A stretch of 64,000 bases of DNA, taken from Chloroflexota bacterium. Lineage in GTDB: Bacteria; Chloroflexota; Dehalococcoidia; GIF9; AB-539-J10. A model generated the notes under the pieces. That model was given only the letters and a program-made list of their open reading frames with translations, was not told the origin of the DNA and searched no databases. Positions 31,406 through 46,858 of this stretch are shown in pieces; positions within the stretch are counted from its first letter, which is position 1; every line of letters starts with the position of its first letter. The stretch covers positions 45,686 to 109,685 of the forward strand of contig JACAEN010000011.1 of the NCBI GenBank assembly GCA_013388845.1, given 5' to 3'. Position numbers and translations under genes: made by a program.

Positions 31406-32029
31406 TTATAGAAATACCTTAAGGCAAAACCGGACACCAAAGCCGACTAGAATCAAAGCACAAACACTAAAGACAATCCTTTGTACCTTCGGTGTCCACC
31501 AGCGTTTTGACTCGAATGTGCCCACGGAGAGAAATTCACTCCAGGCCAAATCGAGAGGCAAATGCACTATAGTAAACAGAATAACACCGACAAGTCCGAA
31601 CCTGGCAGCACCGGTTATTAAAACTGCACCTGCCGTCACCCACCATATGTAAAAAGCCGGGTTAGTTCCCGTGATCACAATACCTGTTACTAAAGAGCTG
31701 GCAGGCAGACCGCCCACCGCACTGTGTGTCTGACGAGTAGCTCGAAACATTCGAAAACCTAGGTAAAGTAGCATCAAGCCACCAACAAGATATAGTACTC
31801 TTTCCACTTGGGGAGAGCTGAGGAAACGCCCGGACCCAAAATATATTGCAGTCATTACAACTATGAGAGGTATTTCGATAACAGCATGCCCGGCTGCAAT
31901 CCAAGCGCCAGCGTGTTTATCACTATAACCTTTGGCGATGGTGGCCGCAGTCATTGGTCCGGGTAGCATAACACCACTAAGGGAAATCGCCGCTGCTGAT
32001 AATAAAAATAAGCCTAGGCTCGTCTCCAT
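31406..32029 (-). CDS. LysE-family transporter
   Basis: SGVMLPGPM, GHAVIE and NPAFYIWW motifs; ~6 TMs. Confidence 0.85.
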   Translation of the reverse strand: METSLGLFLLSAAAISLSGVMLPGPMTAATIAKGYSDKHAGAWIAAGHAVIEIPLIVVMTAIYFGSGRFLSSPQVERVLYLVGGLMLLYLGFRMFRATRQTHSAVGGLPASSLVTGIVITGTNPAFYIWWVTAGAVLITGAARFGLVGVILFTIVHLPLDLAWSEFLSVGTFESKRWWTPKVQRIVFSVCALILVGFGVRFCLKVFL

Positions 32030-32057: not shown

Positions 32058-32822
32058 CTAGATTTCCTCTTGTTCCTCATCCTCCTCAGGCGCAACCCCA
32101 CCATAACGAGGGAGCATCACGTCTACTTTAGTGCGGCGACCTCTGGCTCCTCTGGGTAGTTCGCTAATCATCCTCTTTAGCTCTGCCAGTGCCTCAACCG
32201 ACTGTGTTGAAGGCGCAACTACGCCATCTACCCCAGCTTGCCATAAACTGGTTAGCTCAGCCTTCGCGACTAAGGAAGGCAAGGACATGATAACTGGCTT
32301 CTCTAAAAGCTCGACGAGCCTTCGGCAAACAAGCAGATGCTCTACAGTGACAGAAGGCTCTCCGCTTCTGCTGCTGATAACCACACCGTCTACTCCAAGG
32401 CTATTAATGGCTCTAACAAACCCTGGGTCTAACGAAGGCTCTATCATCAAGAATTTGCCTATCCCCTCTTTGTGTAAAACCGCGGCAGGTACTTTGATGT
32501 CAAAGACCGCAAAGTCACACCCCGCGCTCACAAGCTCGTTTATTTTCTCTTCGCTCATGTCTTTCACAAGTATCCCCACAGGGATATTGCCCATAGCCTC
32601 GACCATTTGCTTAACAACCTTGGCGCTTGTGTCCTCGCTCATTATCAAGCCAGCATCAGCATTGGCCTCAGCCACGGTTTTGGCTTCCTTGACCTGTGTT
32701 CCGGATAGACCAGCAATAAGCAACATTGCCGAGCTTTTTAGTTCAGAGGCGGACGGATGAAAGCCTATGGGCGCGGTTGCAGACTTAGAAAGGCTCTGCA
32801 ATTTATCCACAAATTTGCTCAT
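32058..32822 (-). CDS. hypothetical protein (possible TIM-barrel/aldolase-like fold)
   Basis: 254-aa ORF with beta/alpha repeats (AGCDFAVF, GVDGVV twice) and an acidic tail. Confidence 0.7.
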   Translation of the reverse strand: MSKFVDKLQSLSKSATAPIGFHPSASELKSSAMLLIAGLSGTQVKEAKTVAEANADAGLIMSEDTSAKVVKQMVEAMGNIPVGILVKDMSEEKINELVSAGCDFAVFDIKVPAAVLHKEGIGKFLMIEPSLDPGFVRAINSLGVDGVVISSRSGEPSVTVEHLLVCRRLVELLEKPVIMSLPSLVAKAELTSLWQAGVDGVVAPSTQSVEALAELKRMISELPRGARGRRTKVDVMLPRYGGVAPEEDEEQEEI

Positions 32823-32909: not shown

Positions 32910-32981
32910 AGCCAGCGGTCGGATTCGAACCGACGACCGACGGTTTACGAAACCGCTGCTCTACCTCTGAGCTACGCTGGC
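32910..32981 (-). tRNA. tRNA-Thr(CGT)
   Basis: GCCAGCG acceptor stem, AGCTCAGAGGTAGAGC D-arm, TT-CGT-AA anticodon loop, GGTTCGAATCC T-arm; CCA not encoded. Confidence 0.96.
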
Positions 32982-33112
32982 ACTCATTTAATTGCCTTTC
33001 GAAATAGCCCTCACAGTTAAGGCAAGAGAAGGGCAATGTTAAAGTTGACTCCTGCTATCCTTAACGGGTCTGTTGGAAGGATTCTACCATACCTTAACAA
33101 GCTGTCCAAATT

Positions 33113-34390
33113 TCAGGGGCTCACTTTCCTGGGTGCTCTAATAAAGGCGAGAAGTATCAGTGCTAGGATAGTGCATATGCCACCCACCATGAAAGCCAGG
33201 TAATAAGTGCCTGTTACATCATATACGCGTCCTCCGAGGAGCGGTCCAATTGCTCCCCCGATGGCTACCCCTAACATTTGAACACCGACAATTGCGCCTA
33301 TGGACTTAAGCTTAAAGATTTCCCCAGCTATCACCGGGAGCTGGGGGACACAACCGCCATAGGCAAACCCGAAGACCGCGGCAAACAGATAGAGCATCCA
33401 TATATCTGTGGCTCTCAGGAGCCAGAACATCGCCAAGGCTTGGAGGACCAAACAGATAGCGAGTGTGCGCTTTCCCCCTAGTCTGTCGGAGACGGCGCCC
33501 ATGGCCAGTCGGCCGATAATGCTCAAGACGCCGATTACAACCAGGAACTTAGCAGCCACTATCTCAGGTATGTTGAGGCCGATTGCATGCTTATCTATAT
33601 TAATCATTACCATTTGGAGACATATAGACCAGAAGATAATTATGGCCAGCAATAGCCAGAATGCTCTGGTTTGAGCTGCGTCTTTTAGTGAGAATCCTGC
33701 TCTTTCTGAAGTAAGGCTGTCTTCTTTTATATTTTGATTCTTCTCATCTCCTGCTATCGCCTCAGCCTTGCCCAATGGTAAAAGCCCCTTGTCCTCAGGA
33801 CTACGCCATAGCAGCAGTGCACCTGGGATAATAATGGCCCAGGCCACGAGCCCAAGAATGATATAGGTCCAGCGCCATTCATAAGTATCGATGAGGTATC
33901 TGGCTAGTAGAGGTATGACCGCTGTGCCCACCCCTGTTCCGGCAACAACAATACCTACCGCTAGACCTCTTTTCTGCACGAACCACCTTGATGCTGTGGC
34001 CACTAAAGGAGCAAAGGCCACACTTAGTCCGAAGCCGACCATTAGGCCGTAGAATAGATACAATTGCCAGGCAGCGCTGATTCGGCTGGTCAATATCAGG
34101 CCCAAACCCAGAAAAAAGCCTCCGATGGCCACTGTTATTCTGGGTCCGTATTTGTCGGTGGCCCGTCCGGTGAGGATAGCTAGGGCGCCACGCGAAAACA
34201 TGAAAAGCGAAGCGGCTCCTGTTACTAATGCCTGACTCCAGCCGAAAGCTTCTGACAGAGGGTCGAGGAATTTGCCGAAGGAGTATTGGACACCGTAAGC
34301 AACAAGGGCCACGCAGAAGGCGGCGGCTACTACTACCCAGCCGTAGAAAAGTCTTTGAGTTTTCGCTTGGTCAACTTTGCCAGATTTCAT
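33113..34390 (-). CDS. MFS transporter (OFA/MCT-like)
   Basis: FYGWVVV, GRATDKYGPR, RWFVQKRGLA and GAVSDRLG motifs; ~12 TMs. Confidence 0.92.
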   Translation of the reverse strand: MKSGKVDQAKTQRLFYGWVVVAAAFCVALVAYGVQYSFGKFLDPLSEAFGWSQALVTGAASLFMFSRGALAILTGRATDKYGPRITVAIGGFFLGLGLILTSRISAAWQLYLFYGLMVGFGLSVAFAPLVATASRWFVQKRGLAVGIVVAGTGVGTAVIPLLARYLIDTYEWRWTYIILGLVAWAIIIPGALLLWRSPEDKGLLPLGKAEAIAGDEKNQNIKEDSLTSERAGFSLKDAAQTRAFWLLLAIIIFWSICLQMVMINIDKHAIGLNIPEIVAAKFLVVIGVLSIIGRLAMGAVSDRLGGKRTLAICLVLQALAMFWLLRATDIWMLYLFAAVFGFAYGGCVPQLPVIAGEIFKLKSIGAIVGVQMLGVAIGGAIGPLLGGRVYDVTGTYYLAFMVGGICTILALILLAFIRAPRKVSP

Positions 34391-35782
34391 TCAGGCCTCC
34401 TGTCGCATATCTTTTATCAATTTTTTAGCTCGAGTGCTTTTTTGTAGTGAGCCGGGGGTTACCAGTTGTATCTCGGGTATGGTCATTTTCCCCGTTTTGA
34501 CATTTTTTTGAACCGGCGGGACTTTTAATATCACTTCCCTTACCAGTTCTTCGACCGCTGCTCCTGTTCTAGCTATCTCTACCTGAAAGGTCAGCTTATC
34601 TTTGCCGCCATCCTTGCTAACGCTCACTTCATAACCAACGATGTCAGGAATTGTATAAAGTGCCTCGTCAAACATGGCGGGATATATCTCGTCCCCGTCT
34701 CCTATCCTTACTACCGACTCCAGCCTTCGAGTTACCTTATCCAGCCTCTTGAGAGCGGTTATGCCACACGTGCAAGGTTTGCTACTCAACCTGGATATAT
34801 CGTGTGTTCTGTATCTGATTAGCGGCATCGCTTCCCTAGTTAAGGTGGTAAAGACTAGTTCTCCCTCCTCTCCCTCAGGCAAAACCTCCCCGGTTTCCGG
34901 GTCTATAATCTCGGCCAGAAGGTCAGCCTCGTTAAAGTGGTAGCCATTATGGGCTGAGCACTCTACTGCTACTCCTAACCCCATCTCGGTTAACCCGTAG
35001 TGGGTGAAGACTTCACAATTCCACGCAGACTGGAGGTTAGCCCTCATCGAGTCAGAGAGATAGTTAGAAGTGAGGAACAAGACTTTGACCCCTAATTTTG
35101 TTAAATCATGATTTTTTCTAGCTTCCACCGTAATTCGATTAAGGCGAAGTGTCTCACAAAACAAAACAGTTGAGCCGTGTCTCTTAATGGCCTGGATTTG
35201 CTCCTCGGGAGTTGGCTCAATTCCAGTGACGACTGGCGTAGCCCCCATTTTCTTGACACCTTGTGCCAGCAGGTCAGACTGTCCTAAGACCATACCCTTG
35301 GGCAGCATTATCTGAACGACATCGTCGCTGGTAGCTACCACGCTCATGCCTGCCCCCATAAAATCGGTCATTACCTCAATATCCTTTTCACTAAAAAAAA
35401 TCCTCTTCTGCGGGCCAGTGGTGCCTGAGCTGGTAAAAGTAATTACTCGGGTCACATCTCCTAGAGGAACACATACGAATCTCAGGGGGTTCTCGGCCAA
35501 TTCCTTGGGGTCAGTCAAAGGCAGCTTAGCTAAATCCGCCAGGGATTGGACTTCACTCGGCTCTATGCCCTTTTTGCTGAACAGTTCTCGGTAAAACAGG
35601 CTCTTGTCATAAGCATAGTGTAAAGTATTCCGAAGCTGGAAAAGTTGAAAATCCTCCAAATCACGTCGGGTTAATTTCTCCAGGCTTTTCTTAGCAATAC
35701 GTTTACGGTATTCTGGAGTCTCCTTTATTCTTTGTGTAATTATCTTGTTGAGTGACTCCTGTAGAGAAATCCGCTCGGCCAT
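34391..35782 (-). CDS. PaaK-like AMP-dependent acyl-CoA ligase (DVU_1553-like)
   Basis: TSSGTTG, HYGLTEMG, EIIDPETG, GELVFTTL and PLIRYRTHD motifs. Confidence 0.9.
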   Translation of the reverse strand: MAERISLQESLNKIITQRIKETPEYRKRIAKKSLEKLTRRDLEDFQLFQLRNTLHYAYDKSLFYRELFSKKGIEPSEVQSLADLAKLPLTDPKELAENPLRFVCVPLGDVTRVITFTSSGTTGPQKRIFFSEKDIEVMTDFMGAGMSVVATSDDVVQIMLPKGMVLGQSDLLAQGVKKMGATPVVTGIEPTPEEQIQAIKRHGSTVLFCETLRLNRITVEARKNHDLTKLGVKVLFLTSNYLSDSMRANLQSAWNCEVFTHYGLTEMGLGVAVECSAHNGYHFNEADLLAEIIDPETGEVLPEGEEGELVFTTLTREAMPLIRYRTHDISRLSSKPCTCGITALKRLDKVTRRLESVVRIGDGDEIYPAMFDEALYTIPDIVGYEVSVSKDGGKDKLTFQVEIARTGAAVEELVREVILKVPPVQKNVKTGKMTIPEIQLVTPGSLQKSTRAKKLIKDMRQEA

Positions 35783-35797
35783 GTGATTTGCCTCCAG

Positions 35798-37147
35798 TTA
35801 TGCTATCCCCGGATAAAGACGCTGCCCAGCGACGCTGGTCAAGTATTTGGCACATAAAGGTACCATCTTCCCGGTAGAAGTAATTATGTGAATACAGCAT
35901 CTCTTCAGTCTTTCCAGGTCGATATTCCAGACATCTTGAAAGGCCATGCCTGAAATGTATAAATACTCCCTTTGCAGATGCTGTAATAAAGTGCTAAAAG
36001 GCGCTGGCTTATGTCGAGGTAACGGGCAGCGTTGTACCTCATCTTCCTCAACAAATCTCCAATATCGCTTGGCAAATCGTCGGGAATGCTCAGCTCCATC
36101 CTCATTGATTCGTCTCGGTTCCAAGTGACTGATTGGTAATAACTTCCCATCCATCAATACGAAAAAGCCTGAAAAAGAGCAGTGAGGATGCTCGCAGACG
36201 GGAGGCGCAAAGTTGCTCTCCCTTAACTCTCCGTTCGTTTGTTCCTCAAGAGCTCTGATTATATCTGGTATGGTCAGCCTATCCTCGTCCCCGGGTGTTC
36301 CTGGATATCTGCCGAAGTAACTGACTGGCTGGAAGTAAACTCCTTTTACTGTGGGCACCCAGCTCTTAGCAAACTGGACGATGTCTCCTATCTGCTCAAA
36401 ATTGACATTGGGGATGATTGTGGGTACCAGCGTAACCCCTATCTTGACTTCGGCGCAATTGCTTATGGCTTGGACCTTGAGGTCGAAGAGGCTTGCGCCG
36501 CGGGTATAACGATATACGTCATCAGTTACACCATCAAACTGAAGATAGATAGTGGTAGCCCCGGCCTCCTTTAATCTACTCAGATATTCCTTATCTTCGG
36601 CCAATCTGATGCCATTGGTATTTATCTGGATATGATTAAAGCCCAGTTTCTTGCCCATAGCAATAACCTGAGGCAAGTCCTCCCGGACAGTTGGTTCCCC
36701 ACCGCATAGTTCTACAGGATATGCCCCGCAAGTATCCAAAATGACTTGGTACATCCTTTTGATGCTGTCCAAGGAAGGCTCATAGACAGGTCTTTCGTCG
36801 CCATAGGTAAAACAGATAGGACAATGAAGGTTACACCTATTAGTAGTCATAATAGCTACAGAAGAAGTGTCTTGTTCATGGTCCGGACAAATGCCACAGT
36901 CATAAGGGCAACCTCCATTATGACTGGTAAGCCTCTTTTTGGGACCTACAGGAGTTCCATTACCGCCGAACTCCGCCCATTTGAGGTAATGTTCAGCATC
37001 CTTTCTCCAGATGATAACTTTATATTCGCCATGTCGGGGGCAACTTTTCTCCAGATAAACCTTGCTGTCTTCGGTGGTTATCTTCGCCGGTATCCGGCTC
37101 AGACAGACTGGACATAGGCTCTCTGTTTCGTTCAGTATCTCTTTCAT
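35798..37147 (-). CDS. radical SAM protein, Tes/MJ0619/TrsS-like, paralog 2
   Basis: TESLCPVC..C.RH, CPYDCGICPDH, CNLHCPIC, GGEPT, NTNG, YLQFDG, FQPVSYFGRYP and RCCIH..PLCA motifs. Confidence 0.9.
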   Translation of the reverse strand: MKEILNETESLCPVCLSRIPAKITTEDSKVYLEKSCPRHGEYKVIIWRKDAEHYLKWAEFGGNGTPVGPKKRLTSHNGGCPYDCGICPDHEQDTSSVAIMTTNRCNLHCPICFTYGDERPVYEPSLDSIKRMYQVILDTCGAYPVELCGGEPTVREDLPQVIAMGKKLGFNHIQINTNGIRLAEDKEYLSRLKEAGATTIYLQFDGVTDDVYRYTRGASLFDLKVQAISNCAEVKIGVTLVPTIIPNVNFEQIGDIVQFAKSWVPTVKGVYFQPVSYFGRYPGTPGDEDRLTIPDIIRALEEQTNGELRESNFAPPVCEHPHCSFSGFFVLMDGKLLPISHLEPRRINEDGAEHSRRFAKRYWRFVEEDEVQRCPLPRHKPAPFSTLLQHLQREYLYISGMAFQDVWNIDLERLKRCCIHIITSTGKMVPLCAKYLTSVAGQRLYPGIA

Positions 37148-37173
37148 CCCATTAGTATTATCCAGATGAATTC

Positions 37174-38574
37174 CTAATCTGTGCGAGACAGAGTGATATC
37201 TGTGGGAAGATTCTGATACAGCCTTTCCCCGCTAATACTGGTGACATAAAAGGCACATAGAGGTATTAGTTGCTTATTGCTGGTGACAACGTGAACGCAG
37301 CATCTTTTTAGCCTGTGTAAATCGAGTGTCCATACATCCTGGAAGGGCATGCCGGTAATCGTCAGGTAGTATAGGCTTTCTCTTTCTAGGAAACGTCGCC
37401 AGGCCTCCTGATTTGGCCCACAGCATTGACCACACCCTTTCTCAGTTTGTTTTGGCTTTTCGCTAGCCAATCTCCAACGTCTACTGATAAAGTTTCTCGC
37501 TGTTACTGCCGGAGGATCTTTTCTATAGCCAAATCCACTTACTGCTTCCTGGGCGATGTCTGTCCTCGCTTGTAATTTGCCGTCTTCCATCAGTACAAAA
37601 AAGCTGCTAAATGAACAGTGCGAGTCCTCACATCTGCGAGGCAGAAAATCTGTTTCTTTAAGTTCGCCGTTGGTCTGGGCGACTAACCCATTCACAATAT
37701 CTGGTAGGGTTACCCTATCTTCGTCTTTTGGTGACCAGGGATACCTGCCAAAATAGCTAACCGGTTGGAAATGGACACCCTTGACAGTAGGTATCCATTG
37801 TTTAGCAAATCGGATGATGTCACCTAGCTGGTGAAGATTAACATTGGGAACCACAGTGGGCACCAGGATGACCCCCATCCTCACCTCCGCACAGTTGCTT
37901 ATTGCTCGAACCTTGAGGTCAAATAGGTTTCTACCACGGATAACGCGATAAACATCGTCAGATACACCATCGAACTGGAGGTATATCAAGTCAGCACCAC
38001 TGTCTTTTAGCCTCGCCAGATATTCCTTATTTTGAGCTATTCTGATGCCGTTGGTGTTTATCTGAATATGATAAAACCCCAATTTCTTGCCCAGAGCTAC
38101 AATGGCGGGCAGGTCGTCCCGTAAGGTAGGTTCCCCACCACTCATCTGCACCGGATAAGGTCCACCCGCTTCTACGATGGTTTGATACATTCCTCGGATT
38201 GTAGCGATATCCGGTTCAAAGCGGGAACCTTCGTTGCCGGAAGCGAAGCAGATAGGACAATCGAGGTTACACTTGTGGGTGACTTCCATCACGGTGGTGC
38301 ATGTATCTGCCTCGTGATCGGGGCAGAGACCACAATCATAGGGGCAGCCCTGAGTAATATCAGTTAGCCTCTTTTGTGAACTGCCAGCTTGCTGGCTGTA
38401 TTGGCTCCAATTGCGGTAAAGTTCAGCATTTCGCCAGATCAAAGCCCTGAAGCTACTGTGTTTGGGACAATCTTTTTCCAGATAAACATCTCCCCTTTCT
38501 ACTACTCTCTTGGCTGGTATTCGGCTTAAGCAAACCGGACATAGGCTCTCTGTCTCAGTTAGCACTTCTTTCAT
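37174..38574 (-). CDS. radical SAM protein, Tes/MJ0619/TrsS-like, paralog 1
   Basis: TESLCPVC..C.KH, CPYDCGLCPDH..TC, CNLDCPICFA, SGGEPT, CEDSHCSF and RCCVH..PLCA motifs. Confidence 0.92.
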   Translation of the reverse strand: MKEVLTETESLCPVCLSRIPAKRVVERGDVYLEKDCPKHSSFRALIWRNAELYRNWSQYSQQAGSSQKRLTDITQGCPYDCGLCPDHEADTCTTVMEVTHKCNLDCPICFASGNEGSRFEPDIATIRGMYQTIVEAGGPYPVQMSGGEPTLRDDLPAIVALGKKLGFYHIQINTNGIRIAQNKEYLARLKDSGADLIYLQFDGVSDDVYRVIRGRNLFDLKVRAISNCAEVRMGVILVPTVVPNVNLHQLGDIIRFAKQWIPTVKGVHFQPVSYFGRYPWSPKDEDRVTLPDIVNGLVAQTNGELKETDFLPRRCEDSHCSFSSFFVLMEDGKLQARTDIAQEAVSGFGYRKDPPAVTARNFISRRWRLASEKPKQTEKGCGQCCGPNQEAWRRFLERESLYYLTITGMPFQDVWTLDLHRLKRCCVHVVTSNKQLIPLCAFYVTSISGERLYQNLPTDITLSRTD

Positions 38575-38643
38575 CTTACTAACCCTCTATTACATAAACT
38601 AAAGGACATATAAGCCTTTTACAGGTGGTAGGAAATTGCTTGC

Positions 38644-39408
38644 CTACGGCTTGGTCAAAGCGATAAGAGCATACCCAAACGTTGTTTGACTGAAAAACTC
38701 CTGGTAAGCCTCAACAGGTATGGCACCGTCTCTTCCGTCTTTACCGAGACAATGCATCCCGGCTGCAACTTTAGCGAAGAATTTTGCAACGGAACCGTAG
38801 TTAACAGCTATCCAATAACCTATCCTTTTCATTTCCTCCGGGTGGTCTTCAATGTAAGGATCTTGGAAGCCCGTTTTTTCGAAGAGACTGACGTATTCTT
38901 CCAGCCGTTTTGCCCCTGCGCAAGGAAGGAAAGTCATTTGGCATTGAAGCTTTTGGGGTATTTCTCTGCGAAGTACAAAATCTGTCACCACCACCTTTCC
39001 GCCGCGCCTTAAGACACGATGAAACTCCTTGGCAGCCCTTTCTTTATCTGCAAGGCCGGAGAAAACAGCTTCACACATTACGGTATCGAATGTATAATCT
39101 GGGAAGGGCAGCTGCATCGCGTCAGCTACCAAGAATTGCACTCTGTGAGACAGTGCCTCAGTCCGAGCTCGCTGGTTAGCCAGAGCAATCATCTTATCTG
39201 AGGCATCAATACCAATGACGTCACAAGCATATTGTTGGGATAAAAAGAGGGCTGACATTCCGTCTCCGCAGCCCACCTCCAGAACTGACCAACCTTCGCC
39301 AAGCTTAGCAACCTTAGCCGTTTGCCTAGTAAGTTCAAACCTGCCGGGACGCATTCCCCAGAATTGCACAAGGGAGTCAAAAGTTACATTAGCTGATGCT
39401 GATTTCAT
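38644..39408 (-). CDS. class I SAM-dependent methyltransferase (DVU_1556-like)
   Basis: RPGRFELT, VLEVGCGDG, DAMQLPF and RVLRRGG motifs. Confidence 0.88.
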   Translation of the reverse strand: MKSASANVTFDSLVQFWGMRPGRFELTRQTAKVAKLGEGWSVLEVGCGDGMSALFLSQQYACDVIGIDASDKMIALANQRARTEALSHRVQFLVADAMQLPFPDYTFDTVMCEAVFSGLADKERAAKEFHRVLRRGGKVVVTDFVLRREIPQKLQCQMTFLPCAGAKRLEEYVSLFEKTGFQDPYIEDHPEEMKRIGYWIAVNYGSVAKFFAKVAAGMHCLGKDGRDGAIPVEAYQEFFSQTTFGYALIALTKP

Positions 39409-39451
39409 GCCTGCCCTTAGCTATTACTTGCGGAGCATATGTACTTACACT

Positions 39452-39640
39452 TTACTTTGACTCTAGCATTTTCTCACCTTCGGTGACTTGCGTGAGCACG
39501 AATTCCTCTAGTAGATATTGAGCATCACATTTAGGACATTTCACCCCAACGGCCCCTGGTATCACTAAATCCTTGTATTTAAAGGATACCTCACCTTCTT
39601 CCATTTTCTCTTTACATTTAAAGCAATACCATTGTGCCAC
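39452..39640 (-). CDS. small CxxC..CxxC redox/Zn protein (DVU_1557-like)
   Basis: WYCFKC...KCPKC...LEE...EKMLESK; AAGGAG RBS, GTG start. Confidence 0.85.
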   Translation of the reverse strand: MAQWYCFKCKEKMEEGEVSFKYKDLVIPGAVGVKCPKCDAQYLLEEFVLTQVTEGEKMLESK

Positions 39641-39645
39641 TTGCT

Positions 39646-39909
39646 TTACTCCTTACCTATCCTTGACCTGTGTGAATAAGCCGTATGGATTATGTAGCCC
39701 TTTTCATCAGTAGAATATTCGACGTAGATTGTCACCTCACCAAGCCTGCATTTAGCCAGGTATCTATTTCCCTCTGGTTGATATAGTTTCTCACCCCCGG
39801 TCTCGGCAAAGTCTATTACCTTCTTCACCTCTTCCTCTGATATATGCCTATCCTCCAGCCGCTTCTTTACCTCATCGCCTACCTGCAACTTTATCTCTTC
39901 CCAGGACAT
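39646..39909 (-). CDS. 87-aa protein resembling the C-terminal domain of DVU_1558-like Fe-S oxidoreductases
   Basis: LEDRHI...VIDFAETGG.KL...VTIYVEY...IHTAYSHR; GAGGTG RBS. Confidence 0.8.
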   Translation of the reverse strand: MSWEEIKLQVGDEVKKRLEDRHISEEEVKKVIDFAETGGEKLYQPEGNRYLAKCRLGEVTIYVEYSTDEKGYIIHTAYSHRSRIGKE

Positions 39910-39936
39910 ATTGACACCTCGCTTCTTAAAACATTT

Positions 39937-40077
39937 TTAATCCCTCTGATAACCAGTAAGAGCAATCAGATTTCTAGCGCTGTCGCGTAAGCCTTTGTGC
40001 TGTCGAGCTTTGCCAGAATCATGAAGAGTGAAGGTCTGACCATTCTGCTTAGCTACCTCGGGAATGCCTCTTTCCAC
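39937..40077 (-). pseudogene. remnant of a second CCG-domain gene
   Basis: VERGIPEVAKQNGQTFTLHDSGKARQHKGLRDSARNLIALTGYQ aligns with VENGLPKEYKGNGQTFSLHDPCKTRWEKEWHESARTLLTLMGYK of 40079-41218. Confidence 0.75.
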
Positions 40078-40078
40078 C

Positions 40079-41218
40079 TCACGATTTTTGTCTCGATTCC
40101 AATTGCGACTTTAGCGCTGCCTGATTCGCCTTCCTTACTTCTACGGAATTTGTCTTTTTTGTTTTATCCTTTTGCCAGTCAGGGTTAAAGAGGAGGTCGA
40201 GAATATGCACACTAGGTCGGCTAAGGGCGAAAGTCTCACGGCAACCTGCGCAGTAGGAAACTATGTCGAAGTGAGCCTCCGCTAATCTTTCTGTAGCCAC
40301 GTTAAATACACGGAAAGGATTGAGACCGAGGCTCAGCCCTCCCTGCCCGCAACAGTAGGTTAGCTCTCTGGAATGTCTCATTTCCTCTATCTTATAACCC
40401 ATGAGAGTGAGCAGAGTTCGAGCGCTTTCATGCCACTCCTTTTCCCACCTGGTTTTACAAGGGTCGTGGAGAGAGAAGGTTTGACCATTACCCTTGTACT
40501 CCTTGGGAAGCCCGTTCTCCACAATTACCTCATAGAGGCCTTTCAGTCGATAGTTGGGTGTAGTCTGCTTGATAGTGTAGTAGCACTCCGGACAACCAGT
40601 AATTAGCTCTGACGCCCCTAATTTGTTCATCTCTTCTTCCAGTTCTCGCGTCATTCCTTGAAACTGAGAACCTTCGCCCAAGCTATGAGGAAGAGCCCCA
40701 CAACATCTTAAGATAATCCCCGTGCCCGGTAGCTTTTCCCTGAGATAATCCCAGACCTTAATAACGATGGAGGGTGAATATGCTGATAAACTACAGCCAG
40801 GGAACCAAACCCGTTCACATTTAGCAGTATCAGGGTCAGGGAGGGTCAGGGTGAAGGAAGGAGACTCGGCAAATTGTTTGAGGTCTTGTATAACTTTATG
40901 TCCGGGCAGTGGGCCAACTCCTTCCTCTACCAATTGCTCTCGAAGTGCTAAACACAAGTTAGAAATGTTCAGTCCGCGCGGACAAACTCCCTTACATAGC
41001 TCACAGATGTTGCACGCATAAGGGACTTCAGGGTGCTGCCGGAAATAATCTCTCATCCCTAACAGGACCATGCGGACCACAGTTCTCGGATTGAAGCTGG
41101 CATCCACGTTTGCCAGCAGGCAGTTACCAGTGCATGCCCCGCACTGAATGCAACTTATGACCTCTCCAGACCGTGCCGCAATCTCTTTCTTAAGTTTTGA
41201 ATCTAGCTTGTCCATCAA
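40079..41218 (-). CDS. Fe-S oxidoreductase: HdrC-like dicluster plus two CCG domains
   Basis: CIQCGACTGNC, CNICELCKGVCP, FPGC, CCG, GCPEC, HDPC, CCGQGG and YCAGC motifs. Confidence 0.9.
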   Translation of the reverse strand: MMDKLDSKLKKEIAARSGEVISCIQCGACTGNCLLANVDASFNPRTVVRMVLLGMRDYFRQHPEVPYACNICELCKGVCPRGLNISNLCLALREQLVEEGVGPLPGHKVIQDLKQFAESPSFTLTLPDPDTAKCERVWFPGCSLSAYSPSIVIKVWDYLREKLPGTGIILRCCGALPHSLGEGSQFQGMTRELEEEMNKLGASELITGCPECYYTIKQTTPNYRLKGLYEVIVENGLPKEYKGNGQTFSLHDPCKTRWEKEWHESARTLLTLMGYKIEEMRHSRELTYCCGQGGLSLGLNPFRVFNVATERLAEAHFDIVSYCAGCRETFALSRPSVHILDLLFNPDWQKDKTKKTNSVEVRKANQAALKSQLESRQKS

Positions 41219-41245
41219 TATTAGTCCTGGCGCTTAACTGACCTC

Positions 41246-42325
41246 TTACCCTTTGCTTAAGCCTTTGCCTTGTGATAGAAGAATCAAGATTTCTGAAGCT
41301 GCTGCCTTGGCCTGGGCTACCGTATCAGCGATGTCCTTAGGACTTTGGCAACATCCAGCGATAAAAATTCCATCGGCTGACGTAGCTACTGGCTCAAGCA
41401 TAGCATGTCTCTCCATGAAGAAGCCATCCTTTCTTCGGCTGATAGAAAAGAGGTTGGCAATTTTCTCAGCATCAGCCCTCGGCTCAATGGCAACACACAG
41501 GATAACCATGTCCACCGGCACGCGGAGTATTCCGCCCGCCAGCGTATCCTCAACACAAACAACTAACTTTCCTTTTTCCTCCTCGTTTAGGGCACGGTTC
41601 GTAACACTGGCTACCTTGCCTCTTATCAAATTCACGCCTTCTTCGGAAAGGCGATTATAGAATTCCTCATGGCCTTCGCCAACACAACGCATATCGATAT
41701 ACATTTGGTATACTTGGGCATTCGTTTTTTCCATAATTACATGGGAATAATTGAGGGCATACATACAGCATACCCGTGAGCAGTACTCATGATAATTCTT
41801 GTCTCGGCTGCCAACACAATGTATAATAGCTACACTTTCCGGAGGCTTGCCATTTTTGAGCAGGATTTGGCCGCCGGTCGGCCCCGTAGCACTACACATT
41901 CGTTCAAATTCAAGGCTGGTGAGTACATTATCGTATTCCTTATAACCGTATAGAGTGATGACCGAGGGGTCGAAGACATCATAGCCTGTAGCTAGAATCA
42001 CTGCGCCTACGCTTACTTCGGTAAGTCCGTTGCGTGCCTTTTCCCGTATCTTGACTTTGAAATCGCCGACATGACCTGAGACCTCCTCAATCTCACTAGA
42101 GGTCATAAGCTTAATGTTGGGATGAGATTCCAATTTTGTTATCTTGGGAGTGAGGATATCCAAGGCGGAATCCAGAGTAGGAAAGACTTTATCAAACTCG
42201 GCCATGTGCCCGCCAATCCTAGGCTCCCTTTCTACCAGAATAACCTTGTATCCAGCTTCAGCAATATCCAGAGCTGCTTGGATACCAGCGATACCGCCAC
42301 CGACAACAAGGTTAGTTTTGTTCAT
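41246..42325 (-). CDS. truncated HdrA-like flavoprotein
   Basis: VVGGGIAG, DKVFPTLD, ILATGY, LEFER, CVGSRD..YCSRVCC and GIFIAGCCQSPKDI motifs; no ferredoxin inserts. Confidence 0.9.
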   Translation of the reverse strand: MNKTNLVVGGGIAGIQAALDIAEAGYKVILVEREPRIGGHMAEFDKVFPTLDSALDILTPKITKLESHPNIKLMTSSEIEEVSGHVGDFKVKIREKARNGLTEVSVGAVILATGYDVFDPSVITLYGYKEYDNVLTSLEFERMCSATGPTGGQILLKNGKPPESVAIIHCVGSRDKNYHEYCSRVCCMYALNYSHVIMEKTNAQVYQMYIDMRCVGEGHEEFYNRLSEEGVNLIRGKVASVTNRALNEEEKGKLVVCVEDTLAGGILRVPVDMVILCVAIEPRADAEKIANLFSISRRKDGFFMERHAMLEPVATSADGIFIAGCCQSPKDIADTVAQAKAAASEILILLSQGKGLSKG

Positions 42326-42383
42326 GTCAACCTCCTATGAGCGCAAGGTATTTCAACCAGTCTCTCATCAGCGCTCCGCTTGA

Positions 42384-43544
42384 CTAAATCACTTCTTGAA
42401 TCAGTTCTGATATATCCTTAATTTCTAGGATATCGCCTTTGCCCATATCCAAGACGCTATCCATTAGATTGGTAATACAATAAGGGCAACAGGTAGCCAG
42501 TATATCTGCCTTAACCTCGAGAGCTTCCTCTACCCTCCGGTTAGAAAATCTTTCCTCCTTTTTGGTTTCCATCCAAAACCTTCCCCCTCCGCCACCGCAG
42601 CAAAGGCTATTCTCAGCAGACCTGGGTAGTTCCACCAGTTCCAAGCCTGGGATACTCTTCAGGACTTCCCGTGGTGCATCGTATATACCACTATGACGCC
42701 CCAAATAGCACGGGTCATGATAACTCACTCTTTTCTTCAATTCTTTGGTAAATCTTAGCTTGCCGTCCCGAATAAGTATGGCTAAATATTGACAGAAGTG
42801 AAACACTTCAAAATTGCCTTTCAACTTCGAGTATTCGTTCTTGTAGGTGCTATAGCAGTGGGGCGAAGTAGTAACAATTTTCTTAACACCAGCTTCGTTA
42901 AAAGCGTTAATATTGCTCTGGGCTAAACTTTGGAATAAGGCCTCGTCACCCGCTTTGCGAACACTCTCGCCACAGCAAACCTCTTTAGCTCCCAGGATGC
43001 CAAAATCTACTCCAGCCTTTTTAAGGATATTAACTGCAGCCCGGGCAACTCGCTGGACTCTTGTGTCATATGCGGGAATGCAACACGGGAAGTATAATAT
43101 TTCGGTGCCTTCGGTGTGGATTTTTACATCAAGGTCCTTTGCCCAATCTGCTCGTTTCCCCGGCTCCTCTCCCAGAGGATTACCAACCCCAGCAATATTT
43201 TTTAGTGTAATTCTAAGTGAGTCAGGTACCTTGGCCACACCTAGTCCCACAATGACCCTCCGCAGAGCCCTCATGACATCTGTCATTTCCACACCACGAG
43301 GACATTTCTGAGCACAGGCGATACAGGTAGTACACATCCATATATCATCGGCTTTGAAGTCGACCAGACCAAGCTGTGCCTGGTGAATAAGCTTTCGGGT
43401 GGCAAACCGTGGCGGAAACCTGCTGACGAGGTTCCATGGGCAAATGGCAGTACAGAAACCACATTGATAGCAAGATTTGAGAGGGTCACCCCCGCTCTCT
43501 ATTACGGCACCCTTTATGTCCCTATCTGGATTTGTTGCTTTCAT
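42384..43544 (-). CDS. HdrD-like Fe-S oxidoreductase (dicluster plus two CCG domains)
   Basis: CYQCGFCTAICP, CTTCIACAQKCP, GNPLGE, CCGE, YHDPCYLGR, CCGGGGG and CPYC motifs. Confidence 0.92.
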   Translation of the reverse strand: MKATNPDRDIKGAVIESGGDPLKSCYQCGFCTAICPWNLVSRFPPRFATRKLIHQAQLGLVDFKADDIWMCTTCIACAQKCPRGVEMTDVMRALRRVIVGLGVAKVPDSLRITLKNIAGVGNPLGEEPGKRADWAKDLDVKIHTEGTEILYFPCCIPAYDTRVQRVARAAVNILKKAGVDFGILGAKEVCCGESVRKAGDEALFQSLAQSNINAFNEAGVKKIVTTSPHCYSTYKNEYSKLKGNFEVFHFCQYLAILIRDGKLRFTKELKKRVSYHDPCYLGRHSGIYDAPREVLKSIPGLELVELPRSAENSLCCGGGGGRFWMETKKEERFSNRRVEEALEVKADILATCCPYCITNLMDSVLDMGKGDILEIKDISELIQEVI

Positions 43545-43584: not shown

Positions 43585-43613
43585 ATTATAACAAAAATAT
43601 CTTTTTGGGTAAA
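43585..43613 (-). promoter_or_regulatory. putative sigma70 promoter of the 33.1-43.5 kb cluster
   Basis: TTTACC-17 nt-TATAAT with an extended TG, 40 nt upstream of the first gene. Confidence 0.55.
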
Positions 43614-43633: not shown

Positions 43634-43705
43634 AGCTAGCGGTCGGATTTGAACCGACGACCCGCGGTTTACAAAACCGCTGCTCTACCTCTGAGCTACG
43701 CTGGC
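43634..43705 (-). tRNA. tRNA-Thr(TGT)
   Basis: Cloverleaf with TT-TGT-AA loop and GGTTCAAATCC T-arm; C3.A70 mismatch in the acceptor stem; CCA not encoded. Confidence 0.93.
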
Positions 43706-43812
43706 ATTCTAGTTCTTACTCAACCTTATATCTACCTTTTGGCTTGTCAGAGGTAACCTTTGGCTTAGCGCCACGTAGTAATATAAGGCTGGCATTCCGG
43801 GGACACAATACT

Positions 43813-44661
43813 TTAATATTCCCGCCAATTCCAATTGAACCCACCTTTGAACACATTGGCATTCATCTCATTACTGATAAAGAGGTTGGCCTCGGGGAAG
43901 CGTTTAACCATGGCGTAGTAAAAACTAGCAACATCGTTTGTTCTGACCAGTTCCTCCTCAGTAGCGACAAGATAATCCTTGGTGAAATCGTAGGAACTGG
44001 AGTCGAAGGGCATTCCGGGTTTCTGATGGCCGGGAATAATGACCTCGGCGTCCATTTTCTGTAAGCGCTCAATATCCCGTATCCACTGCTGGCGTTCTTC
44101 CGCGGTAAGCTCGCAGGTAAAGGGATGTGCCTGGTTAAAAAGAACGTCGCTCCCATACAGAGTCCGTATTGAAGGGATCCAGACCACTGTGTTGTATTTC
44201 ATGTCCCCCATCACTTCCGGGATAATCTCGATGCGTTGCCCTTCCAGTTCGAAGTAGTTCTCGGTAAGAGGCTCAATATTGGTTGTTTTTCTGGGTACGT
44301 TTATAGCTCCTATCACTTTTTCCCAGTACTCGATTTTGCCGAAGAACTGTTTATTGATGATATGGGCTTCTGAAGGGAGCGCTACAACCCGAGCTTGAGG
44401 GAAAGCCTCGGCGATGGTGCCCAGTCCAAAGTAATGGTCAGGATGCGCATGAGTAATATAAATCGTTTTCAGATATTTGCCTGTTTCCAGTATTTCTGCG
44501 ATTACTCGATGGGCATTTGACAACGTCCACTGTGCATCAATAAGAACGGCATCGGTCTTGCCTGTCACGATTACGGAGGCCACTTCGAAACCACTTTCGT
44601 CGCTGAAAAAGACTTTCGTTGCCAGTGAGTTCCGCCCGTGTGTGTTTAATCTAATCTCCAT
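43813..44661 (-). CDS. MBL-fold metallo-hydrolase
   Basis: VLIDAQ, ITHAHPDHYFG and IIPGH motifs. Confidence 0.88.
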   Translation of the reverse strand: MEIRLNTHGRNSLATKVFFSDESGFEVASVIVTGKTDAVLIDAQWTLSNAHRVIAEILETGKYLKTIYITHAHPDHYFGLGTIAEAFPQARVVALPSEAHIINKQFFGKIEYWEKVIGAINVPRKTTNIEPLTENYFELEGQRIEIIPEVMGDMKYNTVVWIPSIRTLYGSDVLFNQAHPFTCELTAEERQQWIRDIERLQKMDAEVIIPGHQKPGMPFDSSSYDFTKDYLVATEEELVRTNDVASFYYAMVKRFPEANLFISNEMNANVFKGGFNWNWREY

Positions 44662-45857: not shown

Positions 45858-46601
45858 ATGATTGTTAGAGAAGTCTATGCCAGGAGCATACTATCCGAAT
45901 CGAAGGTCTTTGACTACGTGGTGAACCCATACATTGGGTGCCAGCACGGTTGCAGTTATTGCTATGCTCGTTTCATGAAGAGATTCACGGGACATAAGGA
46001 ACCGTGGGGGCAGTTTGTTGACGTTAAGGTTAATGCCCTAGCTCTGCTGCTGCAGGAGATAAAAAAGAAACCGCCCGGTAGAGTGTGGATAAGCGGAGTA
46101 TGCGACCCTTATCAACCGCTGGAGGGACAATATGAGTTGACAAAGAAGTGTCTTGAAGTATTGATTCAACATGATTGGCCAGTTACAATCCAGACGAAAT
46201 CTCCACTCGTGTTGCGTGACATAGACTTATTCAGGAGAGGCGATAAAGTCGAGGTCGGGTTCTCAGTTACTAGTGCCGACGATAAGGTAAGAAAGTTGTT
46301 TGAACCAGGTGTGCCATCTATTGAGGAAAGGCTCAAAGCACTGGAGGAGCTACATCTTGCCGGCATTAGAACTTATGCCATGATTGCGCCGATGCTTCCT
46401 GGGGCGGAGGAACTTGCAGATGGGCTTAAGGGGAAAGTGGACTACGTATTGATCGACAAAATGAACTACCACTATGGCGATTGGGTGTATAGAAAGTATA
46501 ATTTAGAGGGCGCCATGAGCAATGATTTTTTCTCCTTAAAAGGCAAGGAACTGGCCTCTGCCTTTGCAAAACAGGGCATCGAGTGTCGCGTGCTATATTG
46601 A
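45858..46601 (+). CDS. radical SAM protein, spore-photoproduct-lyase-like family
   Basis: NPYIGCQHGCSYCYA, DPYQPLE and TKS..V.RD motifs. Confidence 0.88.
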   Translation: MIVREVYARSILSESKVFDYVVNPYIGCQHGCSYCYARFMKRFTGHKEPWGQFVDVKVNALALLLQEIKKKPPGRVWISGVCDPYQPLEGQYELTKKCLEVLIQHDWPVTIQTKSPLVLRDIDLFRRGDKVEVGFSVTSADDKVRKLFEPGVPSIEERLKALEELHLAGIRTYAMIAPMLPGAEELADGLKGKVDYVLIDKMNYHYGDWVYRKYNLEGAMSNDFFSLKGKELASAFAKQGIECRVLY

Positions 46602-46858
46602 CGGCGCTTGGGTAACGGCCTTTTTGAGTACATTGCTAAGTGAGATGCTGGCAGCGCTCAGCGAGTAAAGCATTCGCCCCAAAATGTGCTGCTATTTACT
46701 TCAATATTAGCCGGTGCGTCTGGCGGTTAGCAAAATGAGTGATTGTTACCTGCGTAGTGTATCGAACTGAACAGGGGCCCGTTAAGTAGCTGCCTCACCG
46801 AGGATAGAGCCTAAGTTTTGGTGGTATAATGATTTCCGAATTGGTCTAGGAGGTGGCG

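Follow-up and report, generated by a model that had tools for sequence, protein, structure and literature searches.

A stretch of 64,000 nucleotides (nt) from a Chloroflexota bacterium of the class Dehalococcoidia (GenBank assembly GCA_013388845.1, contig JACAEN010000011.1, positions 45,686 to 109,685 of the forward strand), hereafter the window, carries ten open reading frames (ORFs) on its minus strand between positions 33113 and 43544. They encode Fe-S proteins resembling subunits of heterodisulfide reductase (Hdr), a methyltransferase, two radical S-adenosylmethionine (SAM) enzymes of the TrsS family, an acid-activating ligase, and a transporter of the major facilitator superfamily (MFS). 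Here we describe this operon as a TrsS cassette of a rare twin-enzyme subtype, located at a strain-variable site flanked by transfer RNA (tRNA) genes, and we argue that its substrate is probably an organic acid taken up from outside and that membrane lipids are not its likely product.

A ten-gene operon between two tRNA-Thr genes

An earlier note on this DNA, made from the letters alone, had described ten co-oriented genes with short gaps behind one predicted promoter. The ORFs lie at exactly the coordinates that it gave, with gaps of 0 to 169 nt, and hidden Markov models (HMMs) from Pfam and NCBIfam, run on each gene, bore out all of its family calls. The features of the locus, listed from the first operon gene towards the last with protein lengths in amino acids (aa), are as follows.

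43634-43705, minus strand: tRNA-Thr(TGT) gene, the upstream boundary (ARAGORN; Rfam, 67.8 bits)
43585-43613, minus strand: promoter-like site, TTTACC-17 nt-TG-n-TATAAT, 10 of 12 matches, between the tRNA gene and the first gene
42384-43544, minus strand: HdrD-like Fe-S protein, an HdrC-type dicluster domain fused to two HdrB-type CCG domains (Pfam CCG, 124 bits in two stretches, plus Fer4_8)
41246-42325, minus strand: minimal HdrA, 359 aa, with the thioredoxin-reductase-like flavin adenine dinucleotide (FAD) domain only (NF040770 HdrA2, 408 bits in two stretches, cut-off 1100)
40079-41218, minus strand: CCG/dicluster protein, 379 aa, TTG start (NF045663 positions 305-663, 287 bits, cut-off 530)
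39940-40077, minus strand: CCG-gene relic, a 46-codon open frame in the 169-nt gap, reading HDSG where relatives have HDSC, so that the motif cysteine is lost
39646-39909, minus strand: 87-aa protein, the C-terminal domain of NF045663 (positions 675-757, 79.8 bits)
39452-39640, minus strand: DVU_1557-like zinc-ribbon protein, 62 aa, two CxxC pairs, GTG start (PF24292, 49 bits)
38644-39408, minus strand: DVU_1556-like SAM methyltransferase of the twin-locus subtype (NF045667, 143.8 bits)
37174-38574, minus strand: TrsS-1, a radical SAM enzyme of the Tes/GDGT-MAS type (NF045646 model positions 2-441, 586.2 bits, cut-off 490)
35798-37147, minus strand: TrsS-2, a diverged paralogue (NF045646 model positions 2-440, 552.7 bits, cut-off 490)
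34391-35782, minus strand: PaaK-like acid-coenzyme A (CoA) ligase of the DVU_1553 family (NF045666, 371.3 bits, cut-off 300)
33113-34390, minus strand: MFS transporter of the monocarboxylate or oxalate-formate type (MFS_1, 175 bits; SfMCT, 261 bits, cut-off 320)
32910-32981, minus strand: tRNA-Thr(CGT) gene, the downstream boundary (ARAGORN, Rfam)

From the first operon gene to the last, the intergenic gaps measure 58, 27, 169, 5, 43, 69, 26, 15 and 0 nt, a spacing that suggests a single transcription unit, which the MFS gene closes, as had been proposed. The predicted promoter exists as a site, 41 nt 5' of the start codon of the HdrD-like gene; as evidence it fares no better than chance, since a scan of the whole window returned 19 such sites against 19.3 in shuffled sequences, which makes any single site weak evidence. 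Scanning from the MFS stop codon to the tRNA gene beyond it gave no terminator-like site, and Rfam returned only the two tRNAs over the whole window, with no riboswitch to name a ligand.

The core genes and two clades of TrsS loci

The earlier note had likened the core of the operon to the Desulfovibrio DVU_1553-1558/TrsS cassette, and the NCBIfam matches agree. Its phrase 'candidate new pathway' was an overstatement, as the gene set has already been named in NCBIfam. For comparison, a TrsS alignment was used to scan one genome per species, and the best 80 of at least 563 confirmed places were taken, a sample that leans towards the window's relatives; the ORFs of these loci were clustered, and the cluster representatives were named with NCBIfam, Pfam and ESM Atlas. 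A core set emerged, with TrsS in 78 of the 80 loci, the ligase in 70, the methyltransferase in 67 and, by an HMM search of short frames, the DVU_1557-like zinc-ribbon protein in 72. The reductase NF045663 is encoded by one fused gene in 40 loci or else is split.

A maximum-likelihood tree was built from 84 TrsS proteins, namely both proteins of the window and, from 76 of the 80 loci, 82 that are 400 aa or longer (L040, L046, L059 and L091, which have no ORF of that length, are omitted), by a quick IQ-TREE search under LG+G4 with midpoint rooting and support from the Shimodaira-Hasegawa-like approximate likelihood ratio test (SH-aLRT) only. It consists of two groups, clade A with 32 loci and the window, and clade B with 44 loci. 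The partners that the earlier note had named as usual for such cassettes (a xanthine-oxidase-family molybdoenzyme, XdhC, a nucleoside triphosphate (NTP) transferase and a C-GCAxxG-C-C protein) were indeed seen, in clade B. Among its 44 loci we counted a molybdenum aldehyde oxidoreductase (Mo-AOR) in 25, DVU_1555 (the C-GCAxxG-C-C protein) in 34, an XdhC-type protein in 19, an NTP transferase in 19 and a fused reductase in 31, the common order being AOR, NF045663, DVU_1557, methyltransferase, DVU_1555, TrsS, ligase, XdhC and NTP transferase.

Clade A is built otherwise. Mo-AOR, XdhC-type and NTP transferase genes occur within 10 kb in none of its 32 loci and DVU_1555 occurs in two, while the zinc-ribbon protein is retained in 31; the reductase is split in 17, and the 87-aa domain stands as a gene of its own in 22. 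Because none of the 32 loci has them within that distance, the lack of molybdenum (Mo) partners is a property of clade A and not of the window alone. It extends to the host genome (1.38 Mb, 52 contigs), in which the partners that had been reported missing from the operon are also absent: no candidate for a xanthine-oxidase-family enzyme or Mo-AOR (NF045668) was found, in an assembly that is 93.85% complete so that a missing piece cannot be fully excluded, and the best matches to the XdhC-type protein and the DVU_1551 NTP transferase reach 16.2 and 31.8 bits, with none to DVU_1555. What clade A has as extras are 2-hydroxyacyl-CoA-dehydratase-like subunits (9 of 32 loci; ESM Atlas score 0.96, no Pfam match at 1e-4), a BcrAD-type ATPase (8), MaoC-type hydratases (5), a TRAP transporter (DctM; 5), a corrinoid protein with RACo (5), a fumarate-reductase-like flavoprotein (4) and an MFS transporter (3).

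Several of these neighbourhoods deserve a record of their own. The dehydratase-like genes form runs of two to six paralogues of about 380-490 aa, without Pfam or NCBIfam matches, next to clade-A TrsS cassettes in nine of nine loci (L024, L025, L026, L034, L037, L042, L047, L050 and L052), and a BcrAD-type ATPase stands beside them in eight, L052 being the exception. Deltaproteobacterial clade-A cassettes (L038, L039, L041, L046, L048 and L051) have subsets of a TRAP transporter, a fumarate-reductase-like flavoprotein plus Fe-S subunit, a corrinoid protein, a RACo-type activator and an IclR regulator; all of these are present in L038, L039 and L041. In clade B a histidine-phosphatase gene closes the AOR-TrsS operon at 16 of 44 loci (e.g., L053, L063, L072 and L081), with a product that barely passes the cut-off for alpha-ribazole phosphatase (CobC; 166.7 against 162.9 bits), and loci of the Sporomusa type have an extra gene resembling a cysteine desulfurase or selenocysteine lyase.

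Twin radical SAM enzymes of an old and rare pair

The duplication of the radical SAM gene, as first described, is borne out by two proteins that both score above the TrsS cut-off. TrsS-1 aligns to GDGT-MAS (7TOL), the archaeal tetraether lipid synthase Tes, over residues 7-312 and 402-443 (E 1e-95), with about 50% of residues matching over 306. Its AlphaFold model, built from a 39-sequence alignment, has a mean predicted local distance difference test (pLDDT) score of 80.6 and a template-modelling (TM) score of 0.78 to 7TOM, the next fold being MoaA at 0.37. Tes has four metal sites, as described in the part of PMC13459092 drawn on here, and in the alignments the residues of four such sites are invariant in TrsS: a rubredoxin-type site (C12, C15, C36 and H39), an N-cluster (C77, C81, C84 and H87), the CX3CX2C motif (C102, C106 and C109) and a C-terminal cluster (M409, C425 and C440). 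TrsS-2 retains all four and has Ser at the C92 position. The Met-ligated C-terminal cluster of Tes carries a C-S intermediate of the substrate, and Met439 and Tyr459 are fully conserved in 1000 archaeal Tes homologues, according to the passages of PMC9433317 on which we rely. M409 of TrsS occupies the Met439 position, and the Tyr459 position is V429 in TrsS-1 and Ile in 7 of 7 proteins of the TrsS-2 type, in a mapping that assumes a 20-residue offset between paper and chain, taken from motif context. Against the Tes model NF045702 the two proteins score 369.3 and 387.5 bits, below the cut-off of 450, with the main stretch ending near position 316 of 486; residues 313-401 have no detectable likeness to Tes (7TOL), and within them residues 339-351 and 372-386 of the TrsS-1 model have pLDDT values below 50.

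In the tree, TrsS-2 and the second copy of each of the six other twin loci, three from Dehalococcoidia and three from Clostridia, form one group (SH-aLRT 99), and the first copies are placed elsewhere in clade A. Because the second copies form one clade across Dehalococcoidia and Clostridia, the pair is old and not a local duplication. Proteins of the TrsS-2 type share a signature of four residues, E97M, A111T, Q143E and S145C in TrsS-1 numbering, which adjoin the CX3CX2C motif and the GGE SAM-binding motif and are present in 7 of 7 such proteins against 0 of 77 others. When a profile of the seven sequences was run against 1.84 billion cluster representatives, 932 relatives were retrieved at E <=1e-30, and since only four of the best 150 carry the signature, the subtype is rare.

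A fusion of the twin into one open frame of 942 aa was considered and rejected, as a TAG stop and 26-27 nt separate the genes (26 nt in the window) and the frames differ in the window. A predicted complex of TrsS-1 with TrsS-2 scored 0.01, which gives no answer either way on a heterodimer. No selenoprotein form of TrsS was seen among 86 tblastn matches in the 80 loci, where a single stop was met, beyond the C-terminus. Two genomes, L020 (G001:C70:16121-17425) and L015 (G028:C62:2104-3411), contain a further Tes/TrsS-like gene at 393 and 383 bits, below the TrsS cut-off, and these genes may represent a third subfamily.

Methyltransferase, ligase and transporter

The twin loci are also set apart by their methyltransferase. 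Cysteine is frequent at three positions among 62 family members, in 82% at position 47, 89% at position 114 and 94% at position 163, and in an alignment with the arsenite methyltransferase 5EVJ two ArsM cysteines, which we take to be As(III)-binding residues, fall on columns 114 and 163. In the window the cysteine of the ArsM 'SNC' motif is replaced by Ala114, with a cysteine two residues earlier, and the second is kept as C163. Columns 113-114 read Glu-Ala in 6 of 6 methyltransferases of twin loci (the window, L021, L022, L023, L047 and L050; the L052 contig has no methyltransferase gene) and Glu-Cys in 62 of 63 other rows, the exception being a second, unrelated methyltransferase in L063. 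Since the twin loci may share one ancestor, the six Ala cases count as one or two evolutionary events and not as six. The change still marks the twin form as a coherent subtype, with a cysteine lost in the methyltransferase and a cysteine gained beside the SAM site of TrsS-2. Outside its own family the best match of the window's methyltransferase is arsenite methyltransferase, at 98 bits against a cut-off of 263. It is 53% identical to its counterparts in L021 and L023, where the genes on either side are 77-92% identical, and it is either exchanged or fast-evolving.

The ligase, which starts 15 nt after TrsS-2, can be aligned over almost its whole length to 4R1L, a homologue of PaaK (190 bits), aligns to the Burkholderia PaaK too, and has the family residue at all positions with 90% or higher conservation among DVU_1553 proteins, the C-terminal K453 being one of them. 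The start codon of the MFS gene follows directly on the ligase stop codon (0 nt). The transporter is nearest to lactate and oxalate/formate carriers in the family scans, and its orthologues end the operon in L021, L023 and L029.

An exchangeable electron-input module

The earlier note had counted Hdr-like subunits as additions to the cassette. This holds for the HdrD-like protein and the minimal HdrA, which are extra; the CCG protein and the 87-aa protein are a split form of the cassette's own NF045663 reductase, since together they cover positions 305-757 of this family of about 760 aa, the N-terminal head being missing. The 87-aa gene remains beside the DVU_1557-like and methyltransferase genes at loci where the CCG gene sits elsewhere. 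An HdrC-type dicluster followed by two CCG domains, the HdrD layout, is found by Pfam in the products of both 42384-43544 and 40079-41218. The former, a putative extra electron-input subunit, has TfrB as its best NCBIfam match (184 bits, cut-off 385) and, among structures, matches 9OJN_A, a recently solved 'iron-sulfur-binding reductase' of 1042 aa, at 241 bits, far above any Hdr subunit, with HdrC and HdrB chains also among the matches. The minimal HdrA aligns to residues 146-239 and 316-569 of HdrA in 5ODC and matches the 349-aa sHdrA-type chain 6TJR too; compared with full-length HdrA, it is without the N-terminal, inserted and C-terminal ferredoxin domains.

Beside TrsS, this HdrD-like/minimal HdrA pair recurs among the 80 loci in L022, in the same order and 91-93% identical (91% for the HdrD-like protein), and the CCG/dicluster gene there is 92% identical. 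In L021 and L023, which belong to the same genus-level group, the same downstream genes are preceded by another set, consisting of an HdrA of the 1011-aa class, MvhD, an FrhB-like protein, Fer4_22 and an FlxA-like NAD-binding protein; the nearest likeness to the HdrD-like protein in these loci, at most about 26%, is to their CCG gene. Identity between the window and L021/L023 changes abruptly along the operon, with 59% for the CCG protein, 87-92% for the 87-aa protein, 77% for the zinc ribbon, 53% for the methyltransferase, 82-83% for TrsS-1, 86-89% for TrsS-2, 87-88% for the ligase and 77-78% for the transporter. L030 and L031 have the same Flx/HdrA/MvhD set, with downstream genes 44-58% identical to those of the window.

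The 169-nt gap downstream of the intact CCG gene preserves what is probably the scar of a module swap. The 46-codon relic in it has 65% amino acid identity to an internal stretch of the CCG gene of L021, a sister locus of the Flx/HdrA type. It is retained in L022, where the relic copy is 91% identical and a second match, inside the intact CCG2 homologue of that locus, is 52% identical; by this comparison in L022 the relic stands nearer to the L021 type than to the intact CCG gene beside it. From the mosaic of identities and the relic, we read the difference between these loci as the result of recombination within the CCG gene that swapped the electron-input module; the Hdr-like genes would then be an exchangeable supply line to a conserved reductase. 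Other loci have further electron-input alternatives, namely a NuoF-like protein or the reductase's own GltD-like head.

A strain-variable site between tRNA genes

The operon is sporadic among close relatives, TrsS being present in 6 of the 36 further genus genomes searched, in none of 24 genomes of four sister families and in 4 of 150 other genomes of the class (at least 80% complete). In eight of nine genomes of the genus (the window, L021, L023 and five of six genomes without the cassette), tRNA-Thr(CGT) adjoins the gene at 32058-32822, which belongs to the genus core. In the six cassette-free genomes synteny is preserved as far as this gene and the sequence diverges past tRNA-Thr(CGT), which lies within about 10 nt of the gene in five of them and about 3.5 kb off in L138. 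One such genome, L135, has only the CGT copy of the tRNA at the site, no cassette, and a DnaJ-like gene 1.1 kb further on, against 12.5 kb in the window. The cassettes of L021 and L023 directly adjoin the same tRNA-Thr(CGT). Given the sporadic occurrence of TrsS and this variable tRNA site, the operon is an accessory unit. Its architecture recurs in other genomes and its own genome lacks the canonical partners, the reverse of the unique arrangement with partners elsewhere that the earlier note had named as its counter-case. No integrase was seen beside the operon.

The two flanking tRNA-Thr genes are in direct orientation and 92% identical over 76 nt (repeat family D2). As repeats (32910-32985 and 43634-43709) they lie 10,724 nt apart with the operon between them, and recombination between them could remove the whole operon.

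Three neighbouring genes were rejected as members. A gene of the metallo-beta-lactamase (MBL) fold at 43813-44661 lies outside the unit because tRNA-Thr(TGT) separates it from the operon, and the promoter-like site intervenes as well. The gene at 32058-32822 is genus-core (44 of 52 genomes) and keeps its place in cassette-free genomes, and the gene at 31406-32029 stands beside it in all six cassette-free genomes examined. Further out, about 2 kb upstream of the first operon gene and on the opposite strand, is a pair formed by a gene for a 247-aa radical SAM protein at 45858-46601 (best match 'radical SAM mobile pair protein B', 167 bits, cut-off 410) and, just downstream of it, a CrtI-family flavoprotein gene at 46853-48370.

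Discussion

With a little better than even confidence, we read the operon as an AOR-less (clade A) TrsS cassette of the rare twin subtype that processes an imported monocarboxylate, through a CoA thioester, by Tes-type radical chemistry and methylation with Hdr-like redox support. In this scheme, whose order of steps is provisional, the MFS transporter would import a monocarboxylic acid, and the PaaK-like DVU_1553 ligase would adenylate it and convert it into the CoA thioester. Each TrsS would abstract a hydrogen atom from an unactivated carbon, and the resulting radical would be held on a sulfur of the Met-ligated C-terminal [4Fe-4S] cluster, as in Tes, and end in a new C-C or C-S bond. The methyltransferase would attach a methyl group, and the HdrD-like protein, the minimal HdrA, the CCG protein with its 87-aa domain and the zinc ribbon would supply electrons or re-reduce a disulfide formed on the way. 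The chemistry proposed in the earlier note, in which an acid is adenylated, methylated and subjected to two radical steps with a redox supply of its own, is thus plausible on the gene content. We favour an acid and a CoA thioester because carboxylate transporters, CoA-ester enzymes and regulators recur in sister loci. The sequence evidence establishes what the genes are, the conserved core, the fold of TrsS with its metal sites, the two clades, the exchange of the input module and the accessory character of the operon; the class of substrate, CoA as acceptor, the direction of transport, the sequence of reactions and the product belong to the proposal.

Several observations weigh against this reading. 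Co-transcription is argued from spacing, with a promoter match no better than chance; the operon has no regulator, and its sole CoA-ester enzyme is the ligase. The methyltransferase, at 143.8 bits, falls below the NF045667 cut-off of 155, and the DVU_1557-like protein scores 40.6 bits against an NF045645 cut-off of 60, although each is still the best match and homologues stand at the corresponding places in other loci. CoA need not be the acceptor of the acyl-adenylate that the ligase makes, and we infer the direction of transport from the family of the carrier. Radical enzymes that consume SAM, together with a SAM methyltransferase, would be costly for bulk catabolism; given this cost, a product made at low flux, for instance a cofactor, a modified lipid or a signal, is favoured, so that bulk catabolism and a cofactor-like or signalling product come out as equally likely. 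No functional study of the cassette was found in literature searches on TrsS, DVU_155x locus tags, AOR clusters and Tes-homologue neighbourhoods, supplementary tables of Tes papers aside.

Among the alternatives, sulfur insertion is unlikely in our view and still carries some weight. Each TrsS would stop at the C-S stage, the twin would install two thiols on an activated acyl group, and the CCG reductase would cycle dithiol and disulfide, making the system a functional analogue of lipoate assembly by LipS1 and LipS2 beside sHdr. CCG domains are the thiol/disulfide site of heterodisulfide reductases, the minimal HdrA matches the chain of sHdrA size in 6TJR, and cysteines abound in the cassette's proteins (in the DVU_1557-like protein, in the methyltransferase and, in clade B, in DVU_1555). 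The gene order, with HdrCB-like, minimal HdrA, HdrCB-like, ligase and two radical SAM genes, parallels that of shdr-lbpA clusters, and Tes makes a substrate-sulfur bond on the Met-ligated cluster, in the account given by the cited passages of PMC9433317, whose Met and cysteines TrsS keeps. The parallel is, however, one of analogy, as TrsS and the PaaK-like ligase match no LipS or Lpl family in the family scans; a GcvH/LbpA-type carrier is absent from the operon, most cassettes have one TrsS and not two, and the methyltransferase would be left without a role. A more specific version, in which each TrsS enzyme inserts a cluster sulfur at an unactivated carbon of the CoA-activated acid, the CCG reductase cycles the product, a new lipoate-like dithiol/disulfide redox cofactor or metabolite, and the thiol role has moved from the methyltransferase to the TrsS-2 cysteine, is less likely still.

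The strong homology and common fold with GDGT-MAS raise the question of membrane-spanning lipids, in which TrsS would couple fatty-acyl tails into glycerol dialkyl glycerol tetraethers of the branched type (brGDGTs), with the ligase activating fatty acids and the methyltransferase supplying the branches. The relevant part of PMC8941075 puts forward bacterial Tes homologues as brGDGT enzymes, and that of PMC11868695 counts them as such in Chloroflexota metagenome-assembled genomes (MAGs; 111 of 684), in both cases unconfirmed by the source's own account, and the same unconfirmed proposal appears in PMC13159169. We nevertheless consider a lipid product improbable here, given that both TrsS proteins score below the Tes cut-off, that residues 313-401 are unlike Tes and in parts modelled at low confidence, and that the conserved Tyr459 is Val or Ile; moreover, the genes are accessory, with an empty site in a relative, their neighbours encode soluble acid-CoA enzymes, carboxylate transporters and regulators, and the ligase is of the PaaK type and not of the fatty-acid type. 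More doubtful again is a role in organometalloid or thiol methylation, by which an ArsM-like methyltransferase and TrsS would make a C-As, C-Se or C-S compound for export by the MFS protein. The arsenite methyltransferases that head the non-family matches, the two cysteine positions common to both families, and the only appearance of TrsS that we found in print, a line in a table of selenoprotein families (in the portion of PMC13188914 cited here), would fit such a role, which we hold to be very improbable: the first of the ArsM-type cysteines is Ala in all six twin-locus methyltransferases, neither ars genes nor selenium genes were met within the operon, and the transporter resembles carboxylate carriers. 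Finally, the canonical cassette sits between the Mo-AOR gene and the XdhC and NTP-transferase genes, as the clade-B counts for AOR (25 of 44) and XdhC (19 of 44) attest, which might suggest an accessory to molybdoenzyme maturation. This role is unlikely in the window because no Mo partners were found in its genome, with the proviso on completeness given above, and with no Mo genes within 10 kb of any of the 32 clade-A loci it is close to refuted.

The reading of an acid-modifying cassette would have consequences beyond this genome. Bacterial 'Tes homologues' serve as metagenome markers for the makers of branched tetraether lipids, the basis of palaeoclimate proxies, and if many of these matches are TrsS proteins in cassettes such as this one, they mark other chemistry and the inventories need a finer test. 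The cassette is among the more widespread unsolved radical SAM systems of anaerobes, and the matched methyltransferase change of the twin subtype, together with its interchangeable input modules, offers handles on residues, partners and substrates. New here are the two-clade counts, the module swap and its scar, the TrsS-2 signature matched to a methyltransferase subtype, the tRNA-flanked accessory setting, and a host genome without a xanthine-oxidase-family candidate.

Comparison with known systems

The closest known system is the TrsS or DVU_1551-1559 neighbourhood of Desulfovibrio vulgaris and many other anaerobes (NCBIfam NF045645, NF045646 and NF045663-NF045669), with which the operon shares core proteins and their order. 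The window differs from it in having no Mo-AOR, XdhC-type protein, DVU_1551 NTP transferase or DVU_1555 in operon or genome, in a reductase encoded by two genes without the NAD(P)H/FAD head, and in a methyltransferase without one family cysteine; what it adds are the leading HdrD-like and minimal HdrA genes, a second TrsS and the closing MFS gene.

With Tes (GDGT-MAS; MJ0619, 7TOL and 7TOM), TrsS shares the four-domain fold (TM 0.78) and the four metal sites, and it probably holds its substrate radical in the same way. It is set apart by scoring under the Tes cut-off, by a middle stretch with no alignment to Tes, and by the change of Tyr459 to Val or Ile, as well as by its setting among acid-activating, methylating and redox genes and its accessory status in the genus.

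Clusters of the shdr-lbpA type for sulfur oxidation come with sLpl(AB), LipS1, LipS2 and LipT, as far as the cited part of PMC10332631 describes them, and on that description they resemble the window in having a minimal HdrA between two HdrCB-type units and, next to these, a ligase and a pair of cooperating radical SAM enzymes. The radical SAM enzymes and the ligase of the window belong to other families, which suggests a likeness of design only, and its organism is an anaerobe of another phylum. LbpA, Lpl, LipS and sulfur transferase were not among the Pfam and NCBIfam matches of the ten proteins, for which no dedicated search was made.

Nearer relatives are found among the TrsS loci themselves. 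The Clostridia twin loci (L047, L050 and L052) have the same pair of TrsS paralogues as the window, and L047 and L050 have the same Ala-type methyltransferase and the same ligase next, the contig of L052 ending at the twin genes. They differ in carrying a BcrAD-type ATPase (not beside the L052 run), four to five HGD-D-like subunits, a pyridine-nucleotide disulfide oxidoreductase and a TetR regulator, and in being without HdrD/HdrA genes and the MFS transporter. The cassettes wired to Flx-Hdr modules (L021, L023, L030 and L031) share the downstream module of the window and draw their electron input from the 1011-aa HdrA, MvhD, FrhB-like, Fer4_22 and FlxA-like proteins instead.

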